From assembly GCF_963921235.1 (NCBI RefSeq), contig NC_086097.1, positions 88,910,001-88,974,000 of the forward strand: a stretch of 64,000 nucleotides of DNA, read 5' to 3'. Below the pieces are notes generated by a model. It made no database searches. It was not told where the DNA came from and saw nothing but the letters and a program-made list of their open reading frames with translations. This DNA comes from Mobula hypostoma. Its lineage: Eukaryota. Below, in pieces: positions 1 through 50,080 of this stretch (position 1 is the first letter of the stretch; every line of letters starts with the position of its first letter). The position numbers and the translations under genes are program-made.

Positions 1-2828
1 ACCAGTCCTATTTTGCGTAATTGTTGTAACATTTGTTGTCTTTCCTGTGCAAATTTCCTGCATGAAATAAGGATATGCTCTACTGTTTCAGTTTCCTGAC
101 ATAGATCGCAAAAATCTGTTGGATATTTATTTATGATGGCCAGAGTGCCATTAAGGTTGCTGTGCCCAATTCTCAGTCTACTTATAATTACTTGCTCCTT
201 CCACTTTACTCCCCTACTTCTTCCCATATCTACTCTGTTCTGAATTGAATGTAAATGTCTTCCTTTTATTGCTCTATCCCAATGTTGCTGCCACTGTTGA
301 TTTATCCCTCTCCACATTATGCTCTTCCCTTCTTATTTTGATAGTCTAATATTGACCTCTACAGATCCGTTTTTGACTGCTGCTATTGCCAGCCTATCTG
401 CTGTCTCATTTCCCATAATACCTGAATGTGCTGGAACCCACATGAATGCGATATTTTTGCCTTGTCTAGCCAGTCTTGAATTTGCAAACAGGATTTCATA
501 AAGCAGATCCTGGTGACCTCTAGCTGTACCCGTCTTAATGCTTGCAAGGGCCGATACAGAATCGTTACATATCACGATATTATTACAATCAACCTACTCA
601 CTCCATTCTAGTGCTAACAATATGGCAAACATTTCAACTGCATATACTCTCTAACAATCAGGTGTTCTCTTGCTAACTTCCACTTGATAACTTGACAATT
701 GCAGACCCTGTTGCACCTGTTTCTGGATCCTTTGATCCATCCGTAAAAATCTGTACGCCTTTATAGTTGCATTCCCTATAACTATGATATTCACTGAGTA
801 TATCAGCTGTCTTATTACTGTGTTTAATCTTAAGCGATTCCAAATCTACAGAGGGATTTTCTAATAGACAGAAAGGTCTGACAGGCCACACCACACATGG
901 ACAAAACTCTTTATCATATACACCTATATCTTTTGCTGTTTGCTGTTCTGTCCAGCCAAAACTTTCATTTCGGTCCTCTCCTTCTCTCAGCATGTCTGCA
1001 ACACCCTTTTTGTAGGATGGCTATCACCATGCCCCCTTAAATTAATCCAGTGATTGGCCTCCAGCTGTTTACGCCACAGCCCCAGTGGCATTTCATTTGC
1101 CTCAACTTGGAGTGCACACACTGGGGAAGTTCTAACCGCTCCCAAGCACACCCTTAGAGCCCGAGCTTGCACGATATCCAGTTCTGCCAGCACAGATTTT
1201 GCTGCTGACCCGTGTACAATACTTCCATAGTCTAATCTTGATCTCATTAATGCTACATAAATATACTGCAGTGATGCAAAATCAGCACCCCATTCCAATC
1301 CAGCAAGACACCTCATGACATTTATCACATTTTTACATTTAGTAACTACATATCTAACATGGTCTCTCCATGTTAATCTCAGGTCAAAGTGCACTCCCAA
1401 AACCGAAAACTTTCAACTCTCTCCAGATACTTCCATACAGCTTCAAATTAAGTCCCCTGAACTTTTTCCTTGTAAAGAACATGGCTTTTGTCTTATCCAC
1501 TGAAAATTTAGCACCCCACTTTGTCCCCCACTCTTCAACTTGATTAATTCCATCTTGCATTTTCATAACTATACGTTCAATATTTCTCCCTCTTTTCTAC
1601 AAAGCCCCATCATCTGCAAACAATGACCTCCCCACTTCTGTTGGAATATTTACGAATATATCATTTATCAAAATGGAGAATAAAGTTGGACTCACTACAC
1701 TCCCTGATGCGTCCCATTTTCTACAATATACTGGCTTGATAGCTCTGATCCTATCTTCACCTGAATAGTTCTCCCGTTTAGAAAGTCCTTAACCCAATTG
1801 AACATCGCCCCCCCCCACAATTCCCATTAAATGTAGTTTGATTAGGAGCCCCTCTTTCCATAACATATCATAAGCTTTCTCAACATCAAAAAAACTGCAA
1901 CCACTGTCTCTTTATTTACTTGAGCTTTTCTTATTTCATCCTCTAGACACAACACTGGATCCATAGTATTCCTTCCTTTCCTGAACCCGCTGTGATACAT
2001 AGCCACCATACCTCTACTTTCCAAGTAGTACACTAACATCTCATTTATCATACGTTCCATAAGTTTACATACATGTGACGTCAAGGCAATTGGCCCGTAG
2101 TTTCCTGGCCTGCTGGCATCTTTCCCAGGTTTCCTTATTGGAATAATTATTGCCTCTTTCCAGCTCCCTGGTATTCTCCCTTCATCCCAGACTTTGTTAT
2201 ACAGAAGCAGTAGTTTCTCCAGACTTCCTTCACTCAAGTGTTTTATCATACAATAACGTATTTCATCTTTACCTGGTGCTGTCTTTCCTGTTTTATCTAG
2301 TGCCTTTCTTAATTCTCCCATGCTGAAAGGGACATCCTGCACACTGTCAAGGTTAGTTTTCCTACATAAAGCCTCGATATTTTCAGCTTTTGTTCTCTCT
2401 CTACCTTTTCTTCCCTTCTCAGACAAATTATCAGAACTACGTACCATAACAAAAGTGTTTGCCAACAATTCTGCCTTTTCCTTATTTGTTACTGCAGTCA
2501 CATTTCCATTAACCAGAACTGGGTACCTCCACTCTCTCCTGTCCCCTCCCATCCTTTTTATCATCCCCCACACCTCTCATACTTGTGTTGTGTTTCCAAT
2601 TGAATCACAATACTTTCTCCAGGGGGTTCTTTTAGCATGTCTTATTGCCCTCCTTACTACTGCCTGAGCTTGTTTGTACTGAATCATATGTTGGAAGTTA
2701 TGAGTTCTTTTAACCAGTTTAAATGCCTTATTTCTATTTCTCACTGCTTCCTTACAATTATCATCCCACCATGGTATTATTCTCTTCTTTGTTCTTCCTT
2801 TACTTTTAGGGACTATTTTAGGGACTAT

Positions 2829-3523
2829 GACGGCGAGACTATTGGCGAGACCTGACGCAGACTGGGAGACCGCTTTGCTGAACACCTACACTCTGTCCGC
2901 CAGAGAAAGCAGGATCTCCCAGTGGCCACACATTTTAATTCCACATCCCATTCCCATTCTGACATGTCTATCCACGGCCTCCTCTACTGTAAAGATGAAG
3001 CCACACTCAGGTTGGAGGAACAACACCTTATATTCCGTCTGGGTAGCCTCCAACCTGATGGCATGAACATTGACTTCTCTAACTTCCGCTAGGCCCCACC
3101 TCCCCCTCGTACCCCATCTGTTACTCATTTTTATGCACACATTCTTTCTCTCACTCTCCTTTTTCTCCCTCTGTCCCTCTGAATATACCTCTTGCCCATC
3201 CTCTGGGCCACCCCCCCCCCCGTCTTTCTTCCCGGACCTCCTGTCCCATGATCCTCTCGTATCCCCTTTTGCCTATCACGGGTCCAGCTCTCGGCTCTAT
3301 CCCTCCCCCTCCTGTCTTCTCCTATCATTTTGCATCTCCCCCTCCCCCTCCAGCTTTCAAATCCCTTACTCACTCTTCCTTCAGTTAGTCCTGACGAAGG
3401 GTCTCGGCCTGAAACGTCGACTGCGCCTCTTCCTATAGATGCTGCTTGGCCTGCTGCGTTCACCAGCAACTTTGATGTGTGTTGCTTGAATTTCCAGCAT
3501 CTGCAGAATTCCTGTTGTTTGCG
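2829..3523 (+). mobile_element. 5'-truncated Penelope-like element (GIY-YIG C-terminus + terminal repeat with hammerhead) inserted in the Nimb LINE
   Basis: 2841-3092 translates IGET*RRLGDRFAEHLHSVRQRKQDLPVATHFNSTSHSHSDMSIHGLLYCKDEATLRLEEQHLIFRLGSLQPDGMNIDFSNFR*, a Penelope-type GIY-YIG tail. A pyrimidine-rich tract and the hammerhead-containing repeat follow. Confidence 0.9.
3387..3422 (+). ncRNA. Minimal type I hammerhead ribozyme motif with intact core
   Basis: AGTC (stem I) - CTGACGA (core) - AGG GTCTCGG CCT (stem II) - GAAA (core) - CGTC (palindromic ACGT stem III, GUC cleavage triplet) - GACT (stem I'). Confidence 0.85.
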
Positions 3524-4418
3524 TTAGATATCTATCACTTTTTTCCAGAAATTTCTCTCAATTGGCTTTCTCAAGGATCCATTTCCCACCTGTATTCTCT
3601 GTGACCAATGAGGCAGAAATATTTATCTTGCACCAGATTGGGTAATGATCACTCCCTACAGTTCCTTCTTGGTACACTAACCAATCACACACTGATGTAA
3701 TGGAGTTTGATACTAATGTAAGATCAAGCACAGATTCTTTACCTGTATTAACATCAATTCTAGTACTACTGCCATCATTTAGGCACACTAAATACCTGTC
3801 ATCTAGCAACTCCTCCATTACCTGACCATTGATGTCTGTTCTGTCACTCCCTCATAATACGTTATGTCCATTAAAATCACCACACCAAACAACGTTACTA
3901 CTATTCTGCCCCTCTATCTCCTCAAGCTTGTTTAACTCTAGTCTTTTGCATGGGTTATAATAATTCACAATCACCAACTCTTTCCTTTCAGCCCATACGT
4001 TTACTACCACATACTCTTGTTCACTTCCTATACCTAGTATTCTATAAGGAATACCTTGCTTTACATAAGTTGCACATCCTCCTCCTCCCCCCTCTCTCCT
4101 GTCTCACCTTACTGTCAAATAATCATATAAAACAAACTCCAAATTAGGTTTCAACCAGGTCTCCTGGATACACAGAATATCTGGTTTTTCTCTCCTACTC
4201 GCTATAAACTGCTTGAAATCTTGTCCATAAGCAATCAGGCTTCTTGCATTCCATTGAAGAAGTAGCATTATTAGTAATATCAACCCACACATACTGTCTC
4301 TTGACTTGACCGTACCCTGAGTTCATCGTTTACTTCTTCCCATTTTAATCCTATCATATCCAAATGGTGCTCTGCAGCTTTCACAATAATCTGAATCCTT
4401 TCAGTTTTAGATTTGATC

Positions 4419-5442
4419 TCATGCGTTGCGTTTACCACTCCTGCTATAAAGGTCACCAATTTCTTCTTCTCTATCCATGCATTCTTCTTGCCTTACTTTA
4501 GCTGCCATTTGCTCTTTGCTACATCCTCCCTCATTCATTTTCTTCTGTCCTGCCAACTTGACTGCCTCAGCACATGAGACTTTTTCCTTCACCCTTATTT
4601 GCTGCACCTCCACCTCTTTTTTCAACACTTCACATCCCCAGTACACTACACTATGGTTACCTCCACAATTACAGCACTTTGGTCTCACTCCCTCTCCACA
4701 TTTTCCGTATTCACGTTCCCCACCACACCTTGCACATCTTCTCTTTCCTTTGCACACTTTGGCCACATGCCCAAACTCCTGGCAATTGAAACACCTCATA
4801 GGTTTTGGTATATATTCTCTTACACTGTATCTTAGAAATCCAAAATATAACTCCTTTGGAGGCACCTTATCCTCAAATTCTACCAGAACAGTTTCAGTCT
4901 CCCTTTTCTCTGCTCCCCTTGTCATTTTTTTTCTCACACTTCACTGAACTACTCCTCAAGTTCTCCACTAACTCCTTCATATTAACACTGAGGGGAACCC
5001 CGGAGATCACCCCCTTGCAACCATTGGCCCTTTGTGCTCCAACTCTTACAACTCTGGACACTTTGACTTTCCCAACATTAGTCACCTTCATTGCCTTCTC
5101 CATCTGCTCTTCAGTTTTACATCCTATCAGCAGGTTTCCATCTCCTAAAATTCTCGCATGGTTCACTTCCCCTACTTGCCCTCTGATAATTTTTGTTAAC
5201 TTAAGCGGATTGATTTTCCTTACTCCCCCTTCCCTCTCAAAACTTACCACTACATTTAGCAATTTTGACTTTGGGCCCCTCTCCTCAACTTCTCTTCCCT
5301 CACTTTTTGATCCACCTACACTAGACCCACCTCCTTTCTTTCTCTTCTGACCCTTCACCTTCTTGTTCTCAATCCCTCTCCCCACCTCTTCCCACTCAAA
5401 CTCCGTGCTGTTGTTGTCACCATCAGTCTCCCTCCCTGCCAT
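4419..5442 (-). pseudogene. Nimb/I ORF1 gag-like nucleic-acid-binding protein, frameshifted near 4920
   Basis: ORFs 4894..5442 and 4419..4937 join across an A-run frameshift; PKPMRCFNCQEFGHVAKVC zinc knuckle followed by two more Cys/His knuckles. Confidence 0.85.
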
Positions 5443-5460
5443 CCTATTAGAGTTTGCAAG

Positions 5461-5566
5461 GAATCGGAATCGGAATCGGAATCAGCCTCAGCCCCAGCCC
5501 CAGCCCCAGCCCCAGCCCCAGCCCCAGCCCCAGCCCCAGCCCCAGCCCCAGCCCCAGCCCGCCCCC
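5461..5566. repeat. Compound hexanucleotide microsatellite (GAATCG)n then (CAGCCC)n
   Basis: About 3-4 GAATCG units followed by about 12-13 CAGCCC units, just upstream of Nimb ORF1. Confidence 0.95.
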
Positions 5567-17936: not shown

Positions 17937-18300
17937 GTCTAAATTTTACAGCTTTAAAAAAGTGGTCCCAACACCAACTCCTGTGGAGCACCACTAGTCA
18001 CTGGCAGCCAACTAGGAAAGGATCCTTTTATTCCTACTCGCTGCCTCCTACCAAGCAGCCATTGCTGTAACCATGCCAGTAACTTTCCTGTAATACTGCG
18101 GGCTCTTAACTTGGTAAGCAGCCTCATGTGTGGCACCTTGTCAAAGGCCTTCTGAAAATCCAAATATACAAGATCCATTGCATCCCCTTTATCTATCCTA
18201 CTTGTAATCTCCTCAAAAAATTCCCAAAAAATCACCAGACAAGATTTTCCCTTGCTATGCTGATTTTGTCCTATCTTGTCCCATATCATCAAGTACTCAA

Positions 18301-18563
18301 GTTATTTTTTTTTTTCTCCAACGGCTTTCTGAGAGGCGGGACTGCGCAGGCGTGTGACGTCGGGCAGTGCAGCGCGGCAGATTTAAAAGGGCAGACATCC
18401 TGCTTCGGATTTGATTCGAAGAAGGAGTCTGAGAGTCTGAGTGGGAGTGCCGAAAAAGAGATTTTTGAAATTTTCGTTATTTTTTTTTCTCCAACGGCTT
18501 TCTGAGAGGCGGGACTGCGCAGGCGTGTGACGTAGGGCAGTGCAGCGCGGCAGATTTAAAAGG
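18301..18563 (+). promoter_or_regulatory. Tandemly duplicated CR1 5' UTR unit (putative internal promoter)
   Basis: Near-identical ~88-bp blocks at 18301-18390 and 18476-18563, each with GGCGGG, TGCGCAGGCG, TGACGT and ATTTAAAA. Confidence 0.6.
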
Positions 18564-18725
18564 AACAGAGCCTCATAGAGCGGGCAGCGTAGTTTGCGGG
18601 CGGCGGAGTGAGCCGGGAGCAGAGTGAAGACTTAAGGGCTTCGGCTCACCGGGCTTAGGCGGAAGCGGGTGAGGCGAGGAAGGTTTGACATTCATTTTCT
18701 GTTGCTATTTGAGGAGAGGGGCATT

Positions 18726-19661
18726 ATGACTGTGAGGGCAGTTTGCTGTTCTCGGTGTCGGATGTGGGAGGCCCTGGAGTCTCCAAGCCTCCCGGACGTC
18801 TACATCTGCGCCAAGTGCATCGAGATGCAGCTCCTAAGGGACCGCGTTACGGAACTGGAGCTGCAGCTCGATGACCTTCGTCTGGTCAGGGAGAGTGAGG
18901 AGGTGATAGAGAGGAGTGGAAGGCAGGTGGTCACGCCGGGGCCACGGGAGGCAGACAAGTGGGTCACGGTTAGGAGGGGGAAGGGGAAAAGGAAGGTGAT
19001 GGGGAGTACCCCGGCGGCTGTGCCCCTTAACAACAGGTACTCCTGTTTGAGTACTGTTGGGGGGGACAGCTTACCCGGGGGAAGCGACAGTGGCCCTGCC
19101 TCCGGCACAGAGTCTGGCCCTGTAGCTCAGAAGGGTAGGGCAAGGAAGAGGAGGGCAGTTGTGATAGGGGACTCGATAGTAAGGGGGTCAGATAGGCGAT
19201 TCTGTGGACGCAGTCCAGAGACTCGGATGGTAGTTTGCCTCCCTGGTGCCAGGGTCCGGGATATTTCTGATCGTGTCCAAGATATCCTGAAGTGGGAGGG
19301 TGAAGAGCCAGAGGTCCTGGTACATATAGGTACCAATGACATAGGTAGGAAAAGGGATGAGGTCCTGAAAGAAGAATATAGGGAGCTAGGAAGGGAGTTG
19401 AGAAAAAGGACCACAAAGGTAGTAATCTCGGGATTACTGCCTGTGCCACGCGACAGTGAGAGTAGGAATGCGATGAGGTGGAGGATAAATGCGTGGCTGA
19501 GGGATTGGAGCAGGGGGCAGGGATTCAAGTTTTTGGATCATTGGGACCTCTTTTGGCGCAGGTGTGACCTGTACAAAAAGGACGGGTTACACTTAAATCC
19601 TCGGGGGACCAATATCCTGGCAGGGAGATTAGCGGGGGCTACTGAGGTGACTTTAAACTAG
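18726..19661 (+). CDS. CR1 ORF1p (Cys-rich zinc motif, coiled coil, SGNH/GDSL esterase domain)
   Basis: Open from ATG 18726; CSRC..CAKC, heptad LRDRVTELELQLDDL, SGNH blocks VIGDSIVR, HIGTND and DGLHLN. Confidence 0.92.
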   Translation: MTVRAVCCSRCRMWEALESPSLPDVYICAKCIEMQLLRDRVTELELQLDDLRLVRESEEVIERSGRQVVTPGPREADKWVTVRRGKGKRKVMGSTPAAVPLNNRYSCLSTVGGDSLPGGSDSGPASGTESGPVAQKGRARKRRAVVIGDSIVRGSDRRFCGRSPETRMVVCLPGARVRDISDRVQDILKWEGEEPEVLVHIGTNDIGRKRDEVLKEEYRELGRELRKRTTKVVISGLLPVPRDSESRNAMRWRINAWLRDWSRGQGFKFLDHWDLFWRRCDLYKKDGLHLNPRGTNILAGRLAGATEVTLN

Positions 19662-22600
19662 AATGGTTGGGGGGTGGGAATCAAATTAAAGCGGCTAGGT
19701 GTGAGGAGGTTAGTTCACAACAGAGGGATGGGAACCAGTGCAGAGAGACAGAGGGGTGTAAAGTGAGCGTAGAAGCAAAAAGTACAAAGGGGAAAAGTAA
19801 AAGTGGCAGGCCGACAAATCCAGGGCAAGCATTAAAAAGGGCTAAGAGAGTTGTAAAAGAGTGCCTGAAGGCTTTATGTGTCAATGCAAGGAGCATTCGT
19901 AATAAGGTGGATGAATTGAAAGTGCAGATTGTTATTAATGATTATGATATAGTTGGGATCACAGAGACATGGCTCCAGGGTGACCAGGGATGGGAGCTCA
20001 ACGTTCAGGGATATTCAATATTCAGGAGGGATAGACACGAAGGAAGGGGAGGTGGGGTGGCATTGCTGGTTAAAAAAGAGATTAACGCAATAGAAAGGAA
20101 GGACATAAGCCGGGAAGATGTGGAATCGATATGGGTAGAGCTGCGTAACACTAAGGGGCAGAAGACGCTGGTGGGAGTTGTGTACAGGCCACCTAACAGT
20201 AGTAGTGAGGTCGGAGATGGTATTAAACAGGAAATTAGAAATGTGTGCAATAAAGGAACAGCAGTTATAATGGGTGACTTCAATCTACATGTAGACTGGG
20301 TGAACCAAATTGGTAAAGGTGCTGAGGAAGAGGATTTCTTGGAATGTATGCGGGATGGTTTTTTGAACCAACATGTCGAGGAACCGACTAGAGAGCAGGC
20401 TATTCTGGACTGGGTTTTGAGCAATGAGGAAGGGTTAATTAGCGATCTTGTCGTGAGAGGCCCCTTGGGTAAGAGTGACCATAATATGGTGGAATTCTTC
20501 ATTAACATGGAGAGTGACGTAGTTAATTCAGAAACAAAGGTTCTGAACTTAAAGAGGGGTAACTTTGAAGGTATGAGACATGAATTAGCTAAGATAGACT
20601 GGCAAATGACACTTCAAGGATTGACGGTGGATATGCAATGGCAGGCATTTAAAGGTTGCATGGATGAACTACAACAATTGTTCATCCCAGTTTGACAAAA
20701 GAATAAATCAAGGAAGGTAGTGCACCCGTGGCTGACAGGAGAAATTGGGGATAGTATCAATTCCAAAGAAGTAGCATACAAATTAGCCAGAGAAAGTGGC
20801 TCACCTGAGGACTGGGAGAAATTCAGAGTTCAGCAGAGGAGGACAAAGGGCTTAATTAGGAAGGGGAAAAAAGATTATGAGAGAAAACTGGCAGAGAACA
20901 TAAAAACGGACTGTAAAAGCTTTTATAGATATGTAAAAAGGAAAAGACTGATAAAGACAAATGTAGGTCCCCTGCAAACAGAAACAGGTGAATTGATTAT
21001 GGGGAGCAAGGACATGGCAGACCAATTGAATAATTACTTTGGTTCTGTCTTCACTAAGGAGGACATAAATAATCTTCCAGAAATAGTAAGGGACAGAGGG
21101 TCCAGTGAGATGGAGGAACTGAGCGAAATACATGTTAGTAGGGAAGTGGTGTTAGGTAAATTGAAGGGATTGAAGGCAGATAAATCCCCAGGGCCAGATG
21201 GTCTGCATCCCAGAGTGCTTAAGGAAGTGGCCCAAGAAATAGTGGATGCATTAGTGATAATTTTTCAAAACTCGTTAGATTCTGGACTAGTTCCTGAGGA
21301 TTGGAGGGTGGCTAATGTAACCCCACTTTTTAAAAAAGGAGGGAGAGAGAAACCGGGGAATTATAGGCCGGTTAGCCTAACGTCGGTGGTGGGGAAACTG
21401 CTGGAGTCAGTTATCAAGGATGTGATAACAGCACATTTGGAAAGCGGTGAAATGATCGGACAAAGTCAGCATGGATTTGTGAAAGGAAAATCATGTCTGA
21501 CGAATCTCATAGAATTTTTTGAGGATGTAACTAGTAGAGTGGATAGGGGAGAACCAGTGGATGTGGTATATTTGGATTTTCAAAAGGCTTTTGACAAGGT
21601 CCCACATAGGAGATTAGTGTGCAAACTTAAAGCACACGGTATTGGGGGTAAGGTATTGGTGTGGGTGGAGAATTGGTTAGCAGACAGGAAGCAAAGAGTG
21701 GGAATAAACGGGACCTTTTCAGAATGGCAGGCGGTGACTAGTGGGGTACCGCAAGGCTCAGTGCTGGGACCCCAGTTGTTTACAATATATATTAATGACT
21801 TGGATGAGGGAATTAAATGCAGCATCTCCAAGTTTGCGGATGACACGAAGCTGGGTGGCAGTGTTAGCAGTGAGGAGGATGCTAAGAGGATGCAGGGTGA
21901 CTTGGATAGGTTGGGTGAGTGGGCAAACTCATGGCAGATGCAATTTAATGTGGATAAATGTGAAGTTATCCACTTTGGTGGCAAAAATAGGAAAACAGAT
22001 TATTATCTGAATGGTGGCCGATTAGGAAAAGGGGAGGTGCAACGAGACCTGGGTGTCATTATACACCAGTCATTGAAAGTGGGCATGCAGGTACAGCAGG
22101 CGGTGAAAAAGGCGAACGGTATGCTGGCATTTATAGCGAGAGGATTCGAGTACAGGAGCAGGGAGGTACTACTGCAGTTGTACAAGGCCTTGGTGAGACC
22201 ACACCTGGAGTATTGTGTGCAGTTTTGGTCCCCTAATCTGAGGAAAGACATCTTTGCCATAGAGGGAGTACAAAGAAGGTTCACCAGATTGATTCCTGGG
22301 ATGGCAGGTCTTTCATATGAAGAAAGACTGGATGAACTGGGCTTGTACTCGTTGGAATTTAGAAGATTGAGGGGGGATCTGATTGAAACGTATAAGATCC
22401 TAAAGGGATTGGACAGGCTAGATGCAGGAAGATTGTTCCCGATGTTGGGGAGGTCTAGAACGAGGGGTCACAGTTTGAGGATAGAGGGGAAGCCTTTTAG
22501 GACCGAGGTTAGGAAAAACTTCTTCACACAGAGAGTGGTGAATCTGTGGAATTCTCTGCCACAGCAAACTGTTGAGGCCAGTTCATTAGCTATGTTTAAA

Positions 22601-22666
22601 AGGAAGTTAGATATGGCCCTTGTGGCTACAGGGGTCAGGGGGTATGGAGGGAAGGCTGGGTTCTGA
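19646..22666 (+). pseudogene. CR1 ORF2p (APE endonuclease + RT) with one in-frame TGA at 20693-20695
   Basis: ORFs 19667..20695 and 20720..22666 share a frame (PV*QKNK, probably TGG to TGA). Motifs NARS, ITETW, GDFN, SDH, YLDFQKAFDKV, GVPQGSVLGP, FADDTK. Confidence 0.93.
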
Positions 22667-23139
22667 GTTGGATGATCAGCCATGATCATAATAAATGGCG
22701 GTGCAGGCTCGAAGGGCCGAATGGCCTACTCCTGCACCTATTTTCTATGTTTCTATGTTTCTATGTTTCTACTCCATTATCTCATCCTTAACAATTGACT
22801 CCAACATCCTCCCAACCACTGAGATCAGGTCTATAATTTCCTTTCTTACGCCTTCCTCCTTTTTTAAAGAGTGGAGTGACATTTGCAATTTTCCAGTTCT
22901 CTGGCACCATGCCAGAGCCCAATGATTTTTGAAAAATCATTATTAATGCCTCCTCTATCTCCACCGCTACCTCTTTCAGAACCCTAGGATGCAGTTCATC
23001 TGGTCTGGGTGACTTATATTCCTTTAGGTCTTTCAGCTTTTTGAGCACCTTCTCCCTTGTAATGGTATCTGCACTCGCTTCTCTTCCCTCACACTCTTCA
23101 ACACTTGGCATACTGCTAGTGGAAATAATTTTTAAAACA

Positions 23140-23378
23140 CAAACAACAGGAATTCTGCAGATGCTGGAAATTCAAGCAACACACATAAAAGTTGCTGGTG
23201 AAGGCAGCAGGCTAGGCAGCATCTCTAGGAAGAGGTGCAGTCGACGTTCCAGGCCGAGACCCTTCGTCAGGACTGCAGGCCAGGCAGCATCTCTAGGAAG
23301 AGAAACGAAGGGTCTCGGCCTGAAATGTCAACTGCACCTCTTCCTAGAGATGCTGCCTGGCCTGCTGCGTTCACCAGC
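23140..23378. mobile_element. Inverted Penelope terminal-repeat insertion with 13-bp TSD; hammerhead motif at 23239-23274 (minus)
   Basis: AATTTTTAAAACA at 23127-23139 and 23379-23391. Minus copy reads AGTC CTGACGA AGGGTCTCGGCCT GGAA CGTC GACT; a partial plus copy lies at about 23305-23378. Confidence 0.88.
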
Positions 23379-38525: not shown

Positions 38526-38689
38526 GTGAGTAGGTGCCTCTTGCCCATTCTTGCGCCAAGTCTAAGTGGTATTCTGCGCTGACTATACTGTTCAGCAGAC
38601 CTGTTACTGGTGTGATGTACACAGATAAAATGGTGGGCAGTCAGAGGTAATGAATGTAGTTGAGGTCAGTGGGTGGGAGGCACTCAGGC

Positions 38690-41592
38690 TTAATGGAGTG
38701 CTGTGATTGGGATGCATGGAGTGTAATGGAAGGCAGTGGGTGGAATGCATAATGCGTAATGGAGGGTTGTGAGTGGGATGCATAGGGTGTAACAAAGGGC
38801 TGTGCGTGGAACACACGGGATGTAATAGAGGGTTGTGGGTGGGATGCATGGGGTGTAATGGAGGGTTATGTTTGCAATAGATGGTGTGTATGGAGAGTTG
38901 TAATTGATTTGCAAGGGGTGTAACAGAGAGCTGTGGGTGGGATGCACGCAGTGTAATGGGCTGTGTGTGGGATGCAATGGATGTAAGAACTGGTTGTGGT
39001 TGTGACACAGGATGCAATGGAGGGTTGTGGATAGGACAGGATGTAATGGAGGGCTGTGGGTAGGACACGGGATGTAATGGAGGGTTGTGGGTAGGACACA
39101 CTGGATGTAATGGAGGGTTGTGGGTAGGACACAGGATGTAATGGAGGGTTGTGGGTAGGACACACGGGATGTAACGGAGGGTTGTGGGTTGGACACACGG
39201 GATGTAATGGAAGGTTGCGGGTAGGACACACGGGATGTAATGGAGGGTTGCGGGTAGGACGCACGGGATGTAATGGAGGGTTGTGGTAGGACACGGGATG
39301 TAATCGAGGGTTGCGGGTAGGACACACGGGATGTAATGGAGGGTTGTGGGTGGGACACATGCGATGTAATGGCGGGTTGCGGGTAGGACACACGGGATGT
39401 AATGGAGGGTTGTGGGTTGGATACACGGGATGTAATGGAGGGTTGCGGGTAGGACACGGGATGTAATGGAGGGTTGCAAGTAGGTCATGCGATGTAATGG
39501 AGGATTGCGGGTAGGAGCCAGGGGATATAATGGAGGGTTGTGGGTAGGACGCACGGAATGTAATGGAGGGTTGTGGGTAGGACGCACGGGATGTAATTGA
39601 GGGTTGTGGTAGGACATGGGATGTAATCGAGGGTTGCGGGTAGGACACACGGGATGTAATGAAGGGTTGTGGTAGGACACGGGATATAATCAAGGGTTGT
39701 GGGTAGGACACATGGGATGTAATGGTGGGTTGCGGGTAGGACACACGGGATGTAATGGAAAGTTGTGGGTTGGATACACAGGATGTAATGGAGGATTGCG
39801 GGTAGGACACTCGGGATGTAATGGAGGGTTGTGGGTAGGACACGGGATGTAATCAAGGGTTGTGGGTAGGACACATGGGATGTAATGGCGGGTTGCGGGT
39901 AGGACTCAGAAGATGTAATGGAGAGTTGTGGGTTGGATACACGGGATGTAATGGAGTGTTGCGGGTAGGACACGGGATGAAATGGAGGGTTGCGGGTAGG
40001 ACACGGGATGTAATGGAGGGTTGCAAGTAGGTCACGCGATGTAATGGAGGATTGCGGGTAGGAGCCAGGGGATATAATGGAGGGTTGTGGGTAGGACGCA
40101 CGGGATGTAATGGAGGGTTGTGGGTAGGACGCCCGGGATGTAATGGAGGATTGTGGTAGGACATGGGATGTAATCGAGGGTTGCGGGTAGGACACACGGG
40201 ATGTAATGGAGGGTTGTGGTAGGACACGGGATGTAATCAAGGGTTGTGGGTAGGACACATGGGATGTAATGGCAGGTTGCGAGTAGGACACACGGGATGT
40301 AATGGAGTGTTGTGGGTTGGATACACGGGATGTAATGGAGGGTTGCGGGTAGGACACTCAGAATGTAATGGAGGGTTGTGGGTAGGACACGGGATGTAAT
40401 GGAGGGTTGAGGGTAGGACACACGGGATGTAATGGAGGGTTGCGGGTAGGTCACGTGATGTAATGGAGGGTTGCGGGTAGGACCCAGGGAATATAATGGA
40501 GGGTTGTGGGTAGGACGCACGGGATGTAATGGAGGGTTGCGGGTAGGACGCACGGGATGTAATGGAGGGTTGTGCGTAGGACACGGGATGTAATGGAGGG
40601 TTGTGGGTAGGACACAGGATGTAATGGAGGGTTGTGGTAGGACACGGGATGTAATCAAGGGTTGTGGGTAGGACACATGGGATGTAATGGCGGGTTGCGG
40701 GTAGGACACACGGGATGTAATGGAGGGTTGTGGGTTGGATACACGGGATGTAATGGAGGGTTGCGGGTAGGACACACGGGATGTAATGGAGGGTTGTGGG
40801 TAGGACACGGGATGTAATGGCGGGTTGCGGGTAGGACACACGGGATGTAATGGAGGGTTGTGGGTTGGATACACGGGATGTAATGGAGGGTTGCGGGTAG
40901 GACACACGGGATGTAATGGAGGGTTGTGGGTAGGACACGGGATGTAATGGAGGGTTGAGGGTAGGACACACGGGATGTAATGGAGGGTTGTGGTAGGACA
41001 CGGGATGTAATCAAGGGTTGTGCGTAGGACACATGGGATGTAATGGTGGGTTGCGGGTAGGACACAGAAGATGTAATAGAGAGTTGTGGGTTGGATACAC
41101 GGGATGTAATGGAGGGTTGCGGGTAGGACACAGGATGAAATGGAGGGTTGCAGGTAGGACACGGGATATAATGGAGGGTTGTGGGTAGGACACAGGATGT
41201 AATGGAGGGTTGTGGTAGGACTCGGGATGTAATCGAGAGTTGTGGGTAGGACACAGAGGATGTAATGGAGGGTTGTGGTAGGACACGGGATGTAATCAAG
41301 GGTTGTGAGTAGGACATATGGGATGTAATGGCGGGTTGCGGGTAGGACACACGGGATGTAATGGAGGGTTGTGGGTTGGATACACTGGATGTAATGGAGG
41401 GTTGCGGGTAGGACACACGGGATGTAATGGAGGGTTGTGGGTAGGACACACGGGTTGTAATGGAGGGTTGTGGTAGGACATGGGATGTAATGGGTTGCGG
41501 GTAGGACACACGGGATGTAATGGAGGGTTGCGGGTAGGACACGCGGGATGTAATGGAGGGTTGCGGGTAGGATACAGGATATAATGGAGAGT
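38690..41592. repeat. G-rich minisatellite, ~29-32 bp unit GGGTAGGACAC(AC)GGGATGTAATGGAGGGTTG(C/T)
   Basis: Roughly 90 tandem variant units; degenerate at the 38690-39050 end and homogeneous distally. Confidence 0.97.
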
Positions 41593-42067
41593 AATATGAT
41601 GGCATAACTGAAGACAGTCAAGCTATAGGTTTTCAGTGAAATACATGATGATAGAGGACACTCAGGCGCACAAAGGGTGAAAATAATCTGAATTTATGTA
41701 CCCACTGTGTGGTGTGCTGCTACAGAGTCTGGCAGGGCAAACATCGTTTTGAGAGTGTCACTTCTCTTCTTGTAGTATGCAAAAAGTTCATTCATTCAGG
41801 GGAGTTGTATCAATGCTTGATGCATCCTTTGGTATCATCCCATGTTCTCAACAGCCTCATATTGGAATTTGCACAGGCAGCATGACAGGGTGGATAGTCA
41901 TTGTAACCTCCGAGTTGCTGAGTTCTGTAGTGTCACTGTGACCAGTTCTGCTGCACACCCTATTTCAGGGATTGTACTGGGACCCTGACTGCAGCAGTGA
42001 GTAAGTTTTGGATCTGCAGTATGAGATACAGGGGTTCATAACTGTATCTGTTAAATGCCCAGAGAAT

Positions 42068-42764: not shown

Positions 42765-45700
42765 CAGGAGGGGGAGGGAGAGCGGCCAGATGTCTTGGTA
42801 CATATCAGTACCAATGACATGGGAAAGAAAAGCAAAGAGGTCCTGAAGAGGGAATTTAGACAGCTAGGTAGAAAGCTGAGAAGCAGGACCTCCAGGGTAG
42901 TAATTCCTGGACTGCTGCTTGTGCCAGGCACCAGTGAGGGTAGAAACAAGATGATTTGCAGATAAATGCATGGCTGCGAAGCTGGTGCCGGGGGCAGGGC
43001 TTCAGGGTCTTAGATCATTGGGGGGTGGGGTATGACCTGTGCAAAAGGGGCTGGTTGCTCTTGAACCCGAGGGGGATTCTCACAGGTAGGTTTGTTTGAG
43101 CTGTTGGGGAGGGTTTAAACTAACTTGGCAGTGGGATAGGAACTCGAGTGAAGGGACTCAGGTTAGGATAGATGGTAAAAAAAGTAAAGATAGCATGCAG
43201 TCAGACTGTCAGGAAGAGCAGGCAGATGACAGGACAAAATCGCAGCCAGCAGTGTGACTATCAGTGCAGTAGGGTTGCAGAATCAAAATACAGTACTCAA
43301 AGTGTCATATCTCAGTGCACGGAGTATAAGAAACAAGGTGGCTAATCTTGTTGCAGAACTTTTACAGATTGCCAGGTATGATGTTGTGGCCATCACCGAA
43401 TTGTGGCTGAAGGATGGTTGTAGTTGGGAGTTGAATGTCCAAGGTTACACGTTGTATCGGAGAGATAGGAAGGTGGGCAGAGGGGGTGGCGTGGCTCTGC
43501 TGGTAAAGAATGGCATCAAATCATTAGAAGGATGTGACAAAGAGTCAGAAGAGGTTGAGTACTTGTGGGTTGAGTTAAGAAACTGCAAGGGTAAAAGGAC
43601 CCTGATGGCAGTTATATACAGGCCTCCAGACAGTAGCTGGGATGTGGACCACAGATTACAACAGAAAATAGAAAAGGCGTGTTAAAGGGGCAATGTTATG
43701 ATAGTCATGAGAGAATTTAATATGCAGGTTGATAATGGATCTCAAGAGATTGAAGTTCTTGAATGCCTACTGGATAGCTTTTTCAAGCAGTTTGTCATTA
43801 AGCCTACTAGGTGATCAGCTGTACGGGATTGTGTGTTATGTAATGAACTGGAGGTGATTAGGGAGCTGTGAAGGAAGAGAAGTGAGTGCAGTTACTATTA
43901 CAAGGAAGAACATGCTCGGAAAGCTGAAAGAACTAAAATCACCGAGTTCTGAAAGAGGTAGCGGTAGTGATTGTGGAGGCACTAGTATTGATCTTTCAAG
44001 AACCATTGGACTCTGGCATGGTCCTGGAGGACTAGAAAATTGCAAGTATCACTCCACACTTTAAGAAAGGAGGGAGGCAGCAGAAATGAAATTATAGACA
44101 AGTTCGCCTGACAGTGGTTGAGAAGATGTTGGAGTCAGTTGTTAAGGATGAGGTAATGGAGTACTTGGTGACACAGGACAAGATAGCACAAAGTCAGTGT
44201 GATTTTCTTCAGGGAAAATCTTGCCTATTAGAATTCTTTGAGGAGATTACAAGTAGGATAGATAAAGGGGATGCAGTTAGTGTTGTATATTTGGATTTTC
44301 AAAAGGCCTTTCGACAAGGTGCCACACGTGAGACTGCTTACCAAGTTAAGAGCCCATGGTATTACAGGAAAGTTAGAGCATTGGCGGATTGTTAGGAAGC
44401 AGTGAGTGGGAATAAAAGCATCCTTTTCTGGTTGACTGCCAGTGACTCGTGGAGCTCTGCAGGGGTCAGTGTTGGGACCGCTTCTTTTTATGCTGTATAT
44501 CAATGATTTAGATAATGGAATAGATGGTTTTGTTGCCCAGTTTGGTGATGGTATGAAGATTGGTGGAGGGGCAGGTGGTGTTGAGGAAATAGGAAGGCTG
44601 CAGAAGGACTTAGATAGATTACAAGAATGAGAAAATTAAGTGACAAATGAAATGCAATGTTGGAAAATACATGGTCGTACATTCTGGTAGAATAAATAAA
44701 TGTGTAGACTATGTTCTAAATGGGGAGAAAATCCAAAAATCTGAGATGTAAAGGGACATAGGAGTCCTTGTGCAGGTACTTGCAGGTTGAAGTAAGTGGT
44801 GAGGAAGGCAATTGCAATGTTATCATTCATTTCAAAGTCTATGATATAAGAGCAGGGATGTGATGCTGAGGATTTATAAGATGCTGGTGAGGCCTCATCT
44901 TGACTATTGTGAACAGCTTTGGGCTCTTTGTCTAAGAAAAGATGTGCTGGCATTGGAGAGGGTTCAGAGGAGGTTCACAAGGGTGATTCTGGGAATGAAA
45001 GGGTTATTTGAGGAACATTTGATGGCTCTGGACCTGTACTTGCTGGAATTTAGAAGGATGAGGGGGGGGATCTCATTGAAACCTTTCGAATGTTGAAAGG
45101 CCTAGACAGAGTAAACATAGAAACATAGAAAATAGGTGCAGGAGTAGGCCATTCAGCCCTTCGAGCCTGCACGCCATTTATTATGATCATGGCTGATCAT
45201 CCAACTCAGAACCCTGCACCAGCCTTCCCTCCATACCCCTTGATCCCCGTAGCCACAAGGGCCATATTTAACTCCCTCTTAAATATAGCCAATGAACTGG
45301 CCTCAACTGTTTCCTGTGGCAGAGAATTCCACAGATTCACCACTCTCTGTGTGAAGAAGTTTTTCCTAATCTCAGTCCCAAAAGGCTTCCCCTTTATCTT
45401 CAAACTGTGACCCCTCGTTCTGGACCTCCCCAACATCGGGAACAATCTTCCTGCATCTAGCCTGTCCAATCCCTTTAGGATTTTATACGTTTCAATCAGA
45501 TCCCCCCTCAATCTTCTAAATTCCAACGAGTACAAGCCCAGTTCATCCAGTCTTTCTTCATATGAAAGTCCTGCCATCCCAGGAATCAATCTGGTGAACC
45601 TTCTTTGTACTCCCTCTATGGCAAGGATGTCTTTCCTCAGATTAGGGGACCAAAACTGCACACAATACTCCAGGTGTGGTCTCACCAAGGCCTTGTACAA

Positions 45701-48449: not shown

Positions 48450-50080
48450 CATAGAAACATAGAAAACCTACAGCATAATACAGGCCCTTCGGCCCACAAA
48501 GTTGTGCCGAACATGTCCCTACCTTAGAAATTACTAGGCTTACCTATAGCCCTCTATTTTTCTAAGCTCCATGTACCTATCCAGGAGTCTCTTAAAAGAC
48601 CCTATTGTATCCGCCTCCACCACCATTATCTTGTACACCTCTATCAGGTCACCTCTCATCTTCCGTCGCTCCAAGGAGAAAAGGCCAAGTTCACTCAACC
48701 TGTTCTCATAAGGCATGCTCCCCAATCCAGGCAACATCCTAGAAAATATCCTCTGCACCCTTTCTATGACTTCCACATCCTTCCTGTAGTGAGGCGACCA
48801 GAAATGAGCACAGTACTCCAAGTGGGGTCTGACCAGGGTCCTATGTAACTGCAACATTACCTCTCGGCTCCTAAATTCAATTCCACGATTGATGAAGGCC
48901 AATACACTGTACGTCTTCTTAACCACAGAGTCAACCTGCGCAGCTGCTTTGAGCGTCCTATGGACTCGGACCCCAAGATCCCTTTGATCCTCCACACTGC
49001 CAAGAGTGTTACCATTAATACTACGTTTGTATATCCTGCCATCGTAATTGACCTACCAAAATGAACCACTTCACACTTACGTGGGTTGAACTCCATCTGC
49101 CACTTCTCAGCCCAGTTTTGCATCCTATCAAAGTCCCGCTGTAACCTCTGACACCCCTCCACACTATCCACAACACCTCCAACCTTTGTGTCATCAGCAA
49201 ACTTACTAACCCATCCCTCCACTTCCTCATCCAGATCATTTATAAAAATCATGAAGAGTAAGGGTCTCAGAACAGATCCCGGAGGCACTCCACTGGTGAC
49301 CAACATCCATGCAGAATATGACCCGTCTACAACCACTCTTCGCCTTCTGTGGGCAAGCCAGTTCTGGATCCACAAAGCAATGTCCCCTTGGATCCCATGC
49401 CTCCTTACTTTCTCAATAAGCCTTGCATGGGGTACCTTATCAAATGCCTTGCTGAAATCCATATACACTGCATCTACTGCTCTTCCTTCATCAATGTGTT
49501 CAGTCACATCCTCAAAAAATTCAATCAGTCTCGTAAGGCATGACCTGCCCTTGACAAAACCATGCTGACTATTCCTAATCATATTATACCTCTCCAAATC
49601 TTCATAAATCCTGCTTCTCAGGATCTTCATCAAATTACCAACCACTGAGGTAAGACTCACTGATCTATAATTTCCTGGGCCATCTCTACTCCCTTTCTTG
49701 AATAAAGGAACAAGATCCGCAACCCTCCAATCCTCTGGAACCTCTCCTGACCCCATTGATGTTGCAAAGATCATCACCAGAGGCTCAGCAATCTCCTCCC
49801 TCGCCTCCCACAGTAGCCTGGGGTTCATCTCATCCAGTCCCGGCGACTTATCCAACTTGATGCTTTCCAGGATGCCTATCTTCCCTCTCGCACTGTCTCC
49901 AAGCTTTCTCTATTTGTGAGCCAACTGCCTCTTCCGCAGTCTCTTCAGTTCAGTTCCCACTCCCCAATCATTCCAACTTAAACGCTCCGCAGCAGCCTGA
50001 GCAAACCTCCCTGCCAGGATATTGGTCCCCCTGGGATTCAAGTGCAAACCGTCCTTTTTGTACAGGTCACACCTGCCCCA
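48450..50080 (-). mobile_element. CR1 LINE with internal deletions (ORF1 end + RT + 3' end)
   Basis: LYKKDGLHLNPRGTNILAGR at 49910..50185; RT ORF 48857..49855 (YMDFSKAFDKVPH, FADDTK); (TTTCTATG) tail at about 48450-48465. Confidence 0.9.

Follow-up and report, generated by a model that had tools for sequence, protein, structure and literature searches.

The 64,000-nucleotide (nt) stretch of Mobula hypostoma contig NC_086097.1 analyzed here (positions 88,910,001 to 88,974,000, hereafter the window) contains a young CR1 retrotransposon whose first open reading frame (ORF1) ends in a slippery heptamer directly abutting its stop codon, with the second (ORF2) open in the -1 frame. From the sequence of this site, its phase, the two reading frames and the conservation of silent positions, we infer that some ribosomes slip at U_UUA_AAC, at a low rate, and that -1 frameshifting at the ORF1 stop probably yields an ORF1-ORF2 fusion. 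Since relatives in birds and invertebrates keep the slippery site, the reverse transcriptase (RT) of these elements is likely made by a slip back of one base. The element is a known one, and it carries a real and deeply conserved signal of the recoding type. Frameshifting at this junction had been proposed in a preliminary description made from the window sequence alone; the present analysis adds conservation that reaches invertebrate-like lineages, a structure-free run of five G residues (G5), in-frame recombination and apparent swaps of one slippery heptamer for another.

The ORF1-ORF2 junction of the window element

Inspection of ORF1 reveals an N-terminal Cys motif and a C-terminal SGNH esterase. 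The esterase domain matches Lipase_GDSL_2 (E 7e-16), a profile comparison aligns ORF1 with the ORF1 esterase of PDB 4c1b (E 9e-44), and the nearest named protein, from a devil ray, is 99% identical. ORF2 encodes an AP endonuclease followed by RT, and the element ends in short tandem repeats rather than poly(A), a 3' end that we take to be a hallmark of CR1. The CR1 label follows from this architecture and from general features of the family; the tree that we built covers the esterase only.

The ORF1 tail reads ACT TTA AAC TAG, which sets the heptamer T TTA AAC in the X_XXY_YYZ phase of the upstream frame. The -1 frame is closed by a TGA at 19643-19645 and is open from there across the site into the endonuclease. 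The heptamer and its adjoining TAG, the -1 phase of ORF2, the late position of the first ORF2-frame ATG and the out-of-frame ATG at 19663 had all been placed by the preliminary description, and every one of these coordinates holds (Table 1). A premature TGA at 20693-20695, which the preliminary description does not mention, interrupts ORF2 of the window copy; 29 of 30 sister copies read TGG there.

Table 1. Coordinates of the features discussed, numbered from the first letter of the window
Feature	Position	Strand	Remarks
CR1 ORF1, 311 residues	18726..19661	+	N-terminal Cys motif, C-terminal SGNH esterase, end V-T-L-N-stop
ORF2, -1 frame	19646..22666	+	linker as far as 19882; AP endonuclease starting at Asn codon 19883; RT follows
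Slippery heptamer T TTA AAC	19652..19658	+	X_XXY_YYZ phase
ORF1 stop TAG	19659..19661	+	adjoins the heptamer
Out-of-frame ATG	19663..19665	+	+1 relative to ORF1, cannot start ORF2
G run, candidate stimulator	19669..19678	+	+11 to +15 from the heptamer (10-nt spacer); weaker G tract at +18 to +20
Displaced remnant of R5-type junction	19721..19735	+	from in-frame recombination
First ORF2-frame ATG	20270..20272	+	129 codons past the first conserved endonuclease Asn
3' tail of the element	22740..22769	+	tandem 8-nt repeat
Junction of older CR1 family (R2)	43114..43143	+	heptamer, TAA, partly decayed G tract
Junction of third family (R8 type)	49955..49982	-	decayed
ORF1s ending Q-G-N, S-G-N or S-K-N			P0113, P0305, P0306, P0331-P0333, P0342, P0343, P0365, P0318

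Silent positions of the junction are fixed across lineages

Conservation of the heptamer phase across CR1 junctions, a check named beforehand in the preliminary description, passes and reaches beyond vertebrates. The survey comprised 144 junctions, taken from the Mobula genome and from metagenome contigs that carry host DNA, each located by a profile of the esterase tail minus its last columns and then by the best heptamer-plus-stop match within 77 nt. Grouping by blastn and by eye gave a tally of 21 lineages, of which nine are from the Mobula genome, eight are bird-like (resembling named bird proteins) and four are invertebrate-like; two L2-like rows were omitted. One invertebrate-like lineage is 76-77% identical to Ridgeia proteins, and the ORF1 tails of the three groups share a mean identity of 26-33%.

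At the end of ORF1, the Leu codon is TTA in 21 of 21 lineages and the Asn codon is AAC in 21 of 21. The wobble base preceding TTA AAC is T in 20 lineages and G in one (G_UUA_AAC), and G_UU(A) is a listed natural variant of slippery sites (PMC5009743). The residue ahead of the terminal Leu varies (T, G, D, A, S, C, Y or H), and conserved Leu, Asn, Gly, Asp and His residues nearby in the ORF1 tails, taken as controls, use two to six codons each. By lineage majority, TAG, TAA or TGA follows in 21 of 21. Individual copies carry the exact heptamer at 100 of 125 junctions in the Mobula genome and at 14 of 17 from other animals. Local codon usage predicts the full junction pattern at ~0.01 per lineage, and even with only three independent groups its chance is about one in a million. 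The synonymous-site conservation expected of a -1 frameshift site is present. The bare TTTAAAC is frequent, with 17 occurrences in the window; the heptamer phase, the adjoining stop and their conservation are not due to chance.

Of the 18 lineages whose endonuclease could be placed, 17 have it in the -1 frame, the other being one decayed copy, and family linkers between junction and endonuclease span 114-330 nt. In most lineages, the -1 frame is shut 1-5 codons upstream of the heptamer. Within the window, a second CR1 family repeats the layout as previously noted, with a heptamer at 43114 and then TAA, and the third copy (minus strand, 49982-49976) is decayed as had been described, with three mismatches against heptamer plus stop.

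Codon use was also compared at 60 conserved residues in the 13 lineages that offer 200 or more open codons; a single codon is used at 4 of the 60, three of them at the junction. The sole non-junction residue of this kind is the first conserved endonuclease Asn (19883-19885), which is AAT in 13 of 13 lineages and forms an out-of-frame ATG; this may be chance.

A G run at a fixed distance from the heptamer

Positions +11 to +15 downstream of the heptamer are G in 21, 21, 20, 20 and 20 of 21 lineages, respectively, and G is also common at +8 and at +18 to +20. Two of the five conserved positions are codon third positions, where the baseline is 29%. The preliminary description had drawn attention to a G-rich block here. 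Its start at 19665, after a 6-nt spacer, is correct, the conserved part being the G run from 19669; the block persists across lineages as a position-fixed G5 run, but no structure is predicted for it, and it is neither a stem nor a universal quadruplex. The resulting layout, a short conserved and unstructured motif after a spacer of ~10 nt, resembles that of the arterivirus type. C-rich silent-site conservation was not found in the first 500 ORF2 codons of 13 lineages. A universal G-quadruplex was considered and rejected because only one G tract is present in several of the invertebrate-like lineages.

The window family is young and recombinant

The window element belongs to a very young family, in which the best 40 of 1709 candidates (picked for identity) are 100% identical across 19450-19950. 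In all 30 sisters compared, the -1 frame is free of Met over its first 77 codons, and ORF2 is open for 1004 codons in the four sisters extended; the junction is therefore the working form of the family and not damage to a single copy. The family arose by recombination between two others, seen over 19652-19882. Its ORF1 tail shares 85% identity with an R8-type copy, against 72-74% with R5, and the endonuclease region of the family is 93% identical to R5 and 61-63% identical to R8. The recombination join adds 54 nt to the linker and a later deletion takes 27 nt, both of which preserve the frame. These linker changes are compatible with frameshifting, and also with a restart directly after the stop.

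The 5' untranslated region of the young element (window 18300-18570) contains a tandem duplication of ~90 nt, each unit of which opens with a T run. An older RT fragment of opposite orientation (17954-18301 and 22788-23171, minus strand) encloses the element.

ORF1 protein ends and other candidate heptamers

An L-N end is present in 84 of 120 ORF1 homologs matched (84 of 94 when only those extending to the last helix are counted) and is found in sharks, rays, coelacanth, frogs, turtles, squamates and birds. An annelid-centered search of 120 returned L-N in 74 of the 94 reaching the motif. The zebrafish L2 esterase of solved structure and its L2-like relatives lack this end, so the esterase fold does not need it. 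In an esterase tree built from 50 rows chosen by hand, those named vertebrate proteins that end in L-N form one group (support 93/90) that broadly tracks host relationships.

The last helix is reached by 104 of the 150 representatives taken at 50% identity, and these end in L-N (58), Q-G-N (8), S-G-N (1), S-K-N (1) or other residues (36). The Q/S-G-N and S-K-N ends share one clade of distant esterase ORF1s (support 100/96), the tree having placed seven of the eight Q-G-N rows. As read from protein alone, such ends are compatible with G_GGA_AAC and A_AAA_AAC; PMC5009743 names three shifty heptamers with an Asn end, namely these two and U_UUA_AAC. In the Mobula genome, the Q-G-N proteins matched eight loci, the best matches being 32-39% identical. 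Two rows of the Q-G-N clade finish in F-F plus one residue.

CR1 was not found in the viral and prokaryotic collections. Two vertebrate-type CR1 ORF1s (P0021 and P0082) carry the labels of a bacterium and of a flatworm parasite; both are on short contigs and are probably host contamination. The L2-like elements L126, L141 and L143 lack the heptamer. Their ORF1s end in TGA CTG, a possible readthrough context, and for L143 the frame downstream coincides with that of ORF1. One further locus, L144 (1917-1995), combines an ORF1 of esterase-like type with a -1-frame ORF2 that lacks an AUG, and has an in-phase T TTA AAC at 1956-1962 that is accompanied by neither an adjoining stop nor a G run. Pfam assigns only RVT_1 to its RT reading frame, which looks Penelope-like.

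Proposed mechanism

We propose that a small share of ribosomes would slip one base back at U_UUA_AAC and continue in the -1 frame, giving a predicted transframe junction of ...EVTLN followed by LEWLGGG.... The product would be an ORF1-linker-endonuclease-RT fusion of ~1313 residues (311 + 1002) in intact copies, not a free ORF2 protein. A pause is predicted from the adjoining stop and from the single-stranded G5 run 10 nt downstream, which is possibly protein-bound. Slippery heptamers directly adjoining a stop occur in some viruses too. Most ribosomes would terminate and release the ORF1 protein (ORF1p), providing the large ORF1p excess that long interspersed nuclear elements (LINEs) are thought to need; a low slip rate may be enough for a LINE, to judge from the available text of PMC3894237.

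If ORF2 is translated by frameshifting, the CR1 replicase would be redefined as an esterase-endonuclease-RT fusion in which RT is covalently tied to a lipid-binding ORF1 domain. The missing ORF2 start codon would be explained, and the start of the protein would be clarified for those annotating or engineering CR1 elements. The 30 nt concerned would also represent a candidate frameshift stimulator that is not a fold. A wider proposal, offered tentatively and as possible rather than probable, is that esterase-type CR1s from annelids to birds make RT only as an ORF1 fusion, through a structure-free -1 shift that is switched on when a protein (a host G-tract binder or ORF1p) binds the G5 run, and that the signal moved with the esterase module while swapping heptamers.

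Evidence against frameshifting and other explanations

Several observations weigh against frameshifting, among them the scope of the tally and the lack of a conventional stimulator. The lineages are related by descent, 10 of the 21 are represented by a single copy, and the tally omits five old single copies that have 1-2 mismatches at the junction and a further three copies in which more than two occur. No hairpin or pseudoknot was detected 3' of the heptamer when the minimum free energy of 70 nt was compared with shuffles in the 21 lineages (mean z -0.16, none below -1.8), and a canonical downstream element 5-9 nt from the site is absent; the folding was computed without pseudoknots, and no local C-rich partner was seen. 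A scan of 12 records, one of which matched the wrong site, gave no shared long-range partner for the G run. The best pairings differ among families and often fall outside the element, and only R1 and R5 have a pairing in the 3' untranslated region that ranks in the top five. A laboratory reporter vector carries UUUAAAC UAG (PMC3203594), and a structure-less control constructed from this vector gave only 0.4% (PMC3919603). As for the apparent heptamer swaps, the Q-G-N clade includes members with other ends, and DNA of this group was not found in viral contigs (one weak match), plasmids or the Mobula genome. A weak search for natural in-frame ORF1-ORF2 fusions gave none that recurred among nine longer matches, all in single-member clusters. 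No recurring joint at the junction was present among those listed, each from a single contig, in contigs of 4 of 24 runs whose RNA status was guessed; contigs do not reveal expression or splicing, and this result is not used as evidence.

Start codons near the ORF1 stop belong to the same side of the balance. An in-frame linker AUG is present in 11 of 17 evaluable lineages, between codons 3 and 38 and at unshared positions; five lineages, including the young window family, have no in-frame AUG ahead of the endonuclease, and one is too decayed to call. An in-frame AUG ahead of the endonuclease, which the preliminary description had named as a ground for refutation, is absent from the window family (0 of 30 sisters) and occurs in these 11 lineages, so that reinitiation may coexist with frameshifting in some families. 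Closer to the stop, an in-frame AUG lies within 8 nt in 5 of 21 lineages, in one of them as an overlapping UAAUG; four bird-like lineages carry stop-NN-ATG, and ATG, TTG or GTG stands two bases past the stop in 10 of 21. These codons, and above all the five AUGs within 8 nt, are what speaks for termination-reinitiation, whereby ribosomes would restart a few bases past the ORF1 stop at an AUG or another codon and release free ORF2 protein (ORF2p), the heptamer and G run aiding the pause or the restart. Such reinitiation has been proposed for L1 and demonstrated for SART1. ORF2 initiation of L1 is described as AUG-independent (PMC5009743), and SART1 uses UAAUG (PMC3708506). A restart does not account for the wobble T that is fixed seven bases ahead of the stop, for the invariance of the TTA and AAC codons, or for the apparent swaps to other slippery heptamers. 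The young window family inherited its ORF2 from a UAAUG family without the UAAUG; no AUG overlaps or adjoins the ORF1 stop in its sisters (0 of 30), and the candidate start is TGG. We consider reinitiation an unlikely source of ORF2, although frameshifting and reinitiation may operate together in lineages with a nearby AUG.

Frameshifting also has to be set against explanations that do not involve the ribosome at this site. The Leu-Asn end could reflect a protein constraint and the motif a non-translational RNA or DNA element (for packaging, RT recognition or as a palindrome), with ORF2 made otherwise. TTTAAA is palindromic, and the protein-only test is weak, residues without T-ending codons being rare at -3 (2 of 84) and likewise at -6, -7, -9 and -10 (3 to 7 of 84). 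However, the motif is tied to ORF1 phase and stop even where the ORF1 tail is at least five codons longer, the palindrome-extending base varies, and other esterases lack L-N; we judge this explanation very improbable. Hardly credible, in our assessment, is a joining of ORF1 and ORF2 in RNA through splicing at a CTAG acceptor, editing or polymerase slippage. The stop of the window family does read CTAG and resembles a 3' splice site, but a pyrimidine tract is absent and 6 of 21 lineages have TAA or TGA, hence no AG acceptor. Runs of three T or three A are too short for known polymerase slippage.

Other features of the window

A long degenerate tandem repeat at 38600-41700 yields spurious long open reading frames on the minus strand. 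Pieces of another LINE with a zinc-knuckle ORF1 lie at 987-5481 (minus strand).

Comparison with known systems

CR1 is the most abundant interspersed repeat of the chicken (PMC11835228), and the translation of LINE ORF2 has been called an open and important question in PMC3894237, the available text of which lists no frameshift option. No frameshifting proposal for CR1 was found in the literature searched, including PMC5006619; the original CR1 descriptions lie outside this coverage, and an earlier mention is possible. Within the available text, PMC4120745 contains neither 'frameshift' nor 'overlap' and its supplement text no matching sequence, PMC3905857 does not contain 'frameshift', PMC8665684 has no term match and PMC5009743 does not contain 'CR1'. 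The architecture of ORF1 and ORF2 is shared with CR1 subgroup 7 and its type IVB esterase ORF1, as defined by Metcalfe and Casane (PMC4120745). That study found esterase ORF1s only in vertebrate groups, whereas close relatives here are named from an annelid.

Other LINEs offer partial parallels. For Paramecium LINEs, a +1 shift, reinitiation or readthrough has been suggested (PMC5405496). The Dictyostelium elements TRE5-A and TRE3-A, of the L1 clade, need a -1 frameshift for ORF2 according to a figure legend of a review (PMC5911963); these elements differ from CR1 in clade and in ORF1. SART1 with its UAAUG and L1 with AUG-independent initiation likewise make low-level ORF2 from a bicistronic LINE RNA, and one CR1 lineage shares the UAAUG. 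In contrast to the product predicted here, both give free ORF2p, and the window CR1 family has no AUG near the stop.

The coronavirus ORF1a/1b site (U_UUA_AAC in infectious bronchitis virus, IBV) and that of simian retrovirus 1 (SRV-1, G_GGA_AAC) resemble CR1 in heptamer class, in phase and in having the polymerase in the -1 frame (PMC5009743, PMC3203594). CR1 differs from these coronaviral and retroviral sites in lacking a pseudoknot or hairpin, in its position-fixed G5 run and in its host, a non-LTR (long terminal repeat) retrotransposon. [quoted passage not shown] The equal spacers of CR1 and PRRSV are a geometric resemblance only: the heptamers differ, and the PRRSV motif is C-rich and bound by nsp1beta/PCBP (PMC4937337), whereas that of CR1 is G-rich. 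If the CR1 shift is in fact switched by a protein, host genomes would hold a parallel to the trans-activated frameshifting of arteriviruses, and one that is kept across bilaterian lineages.

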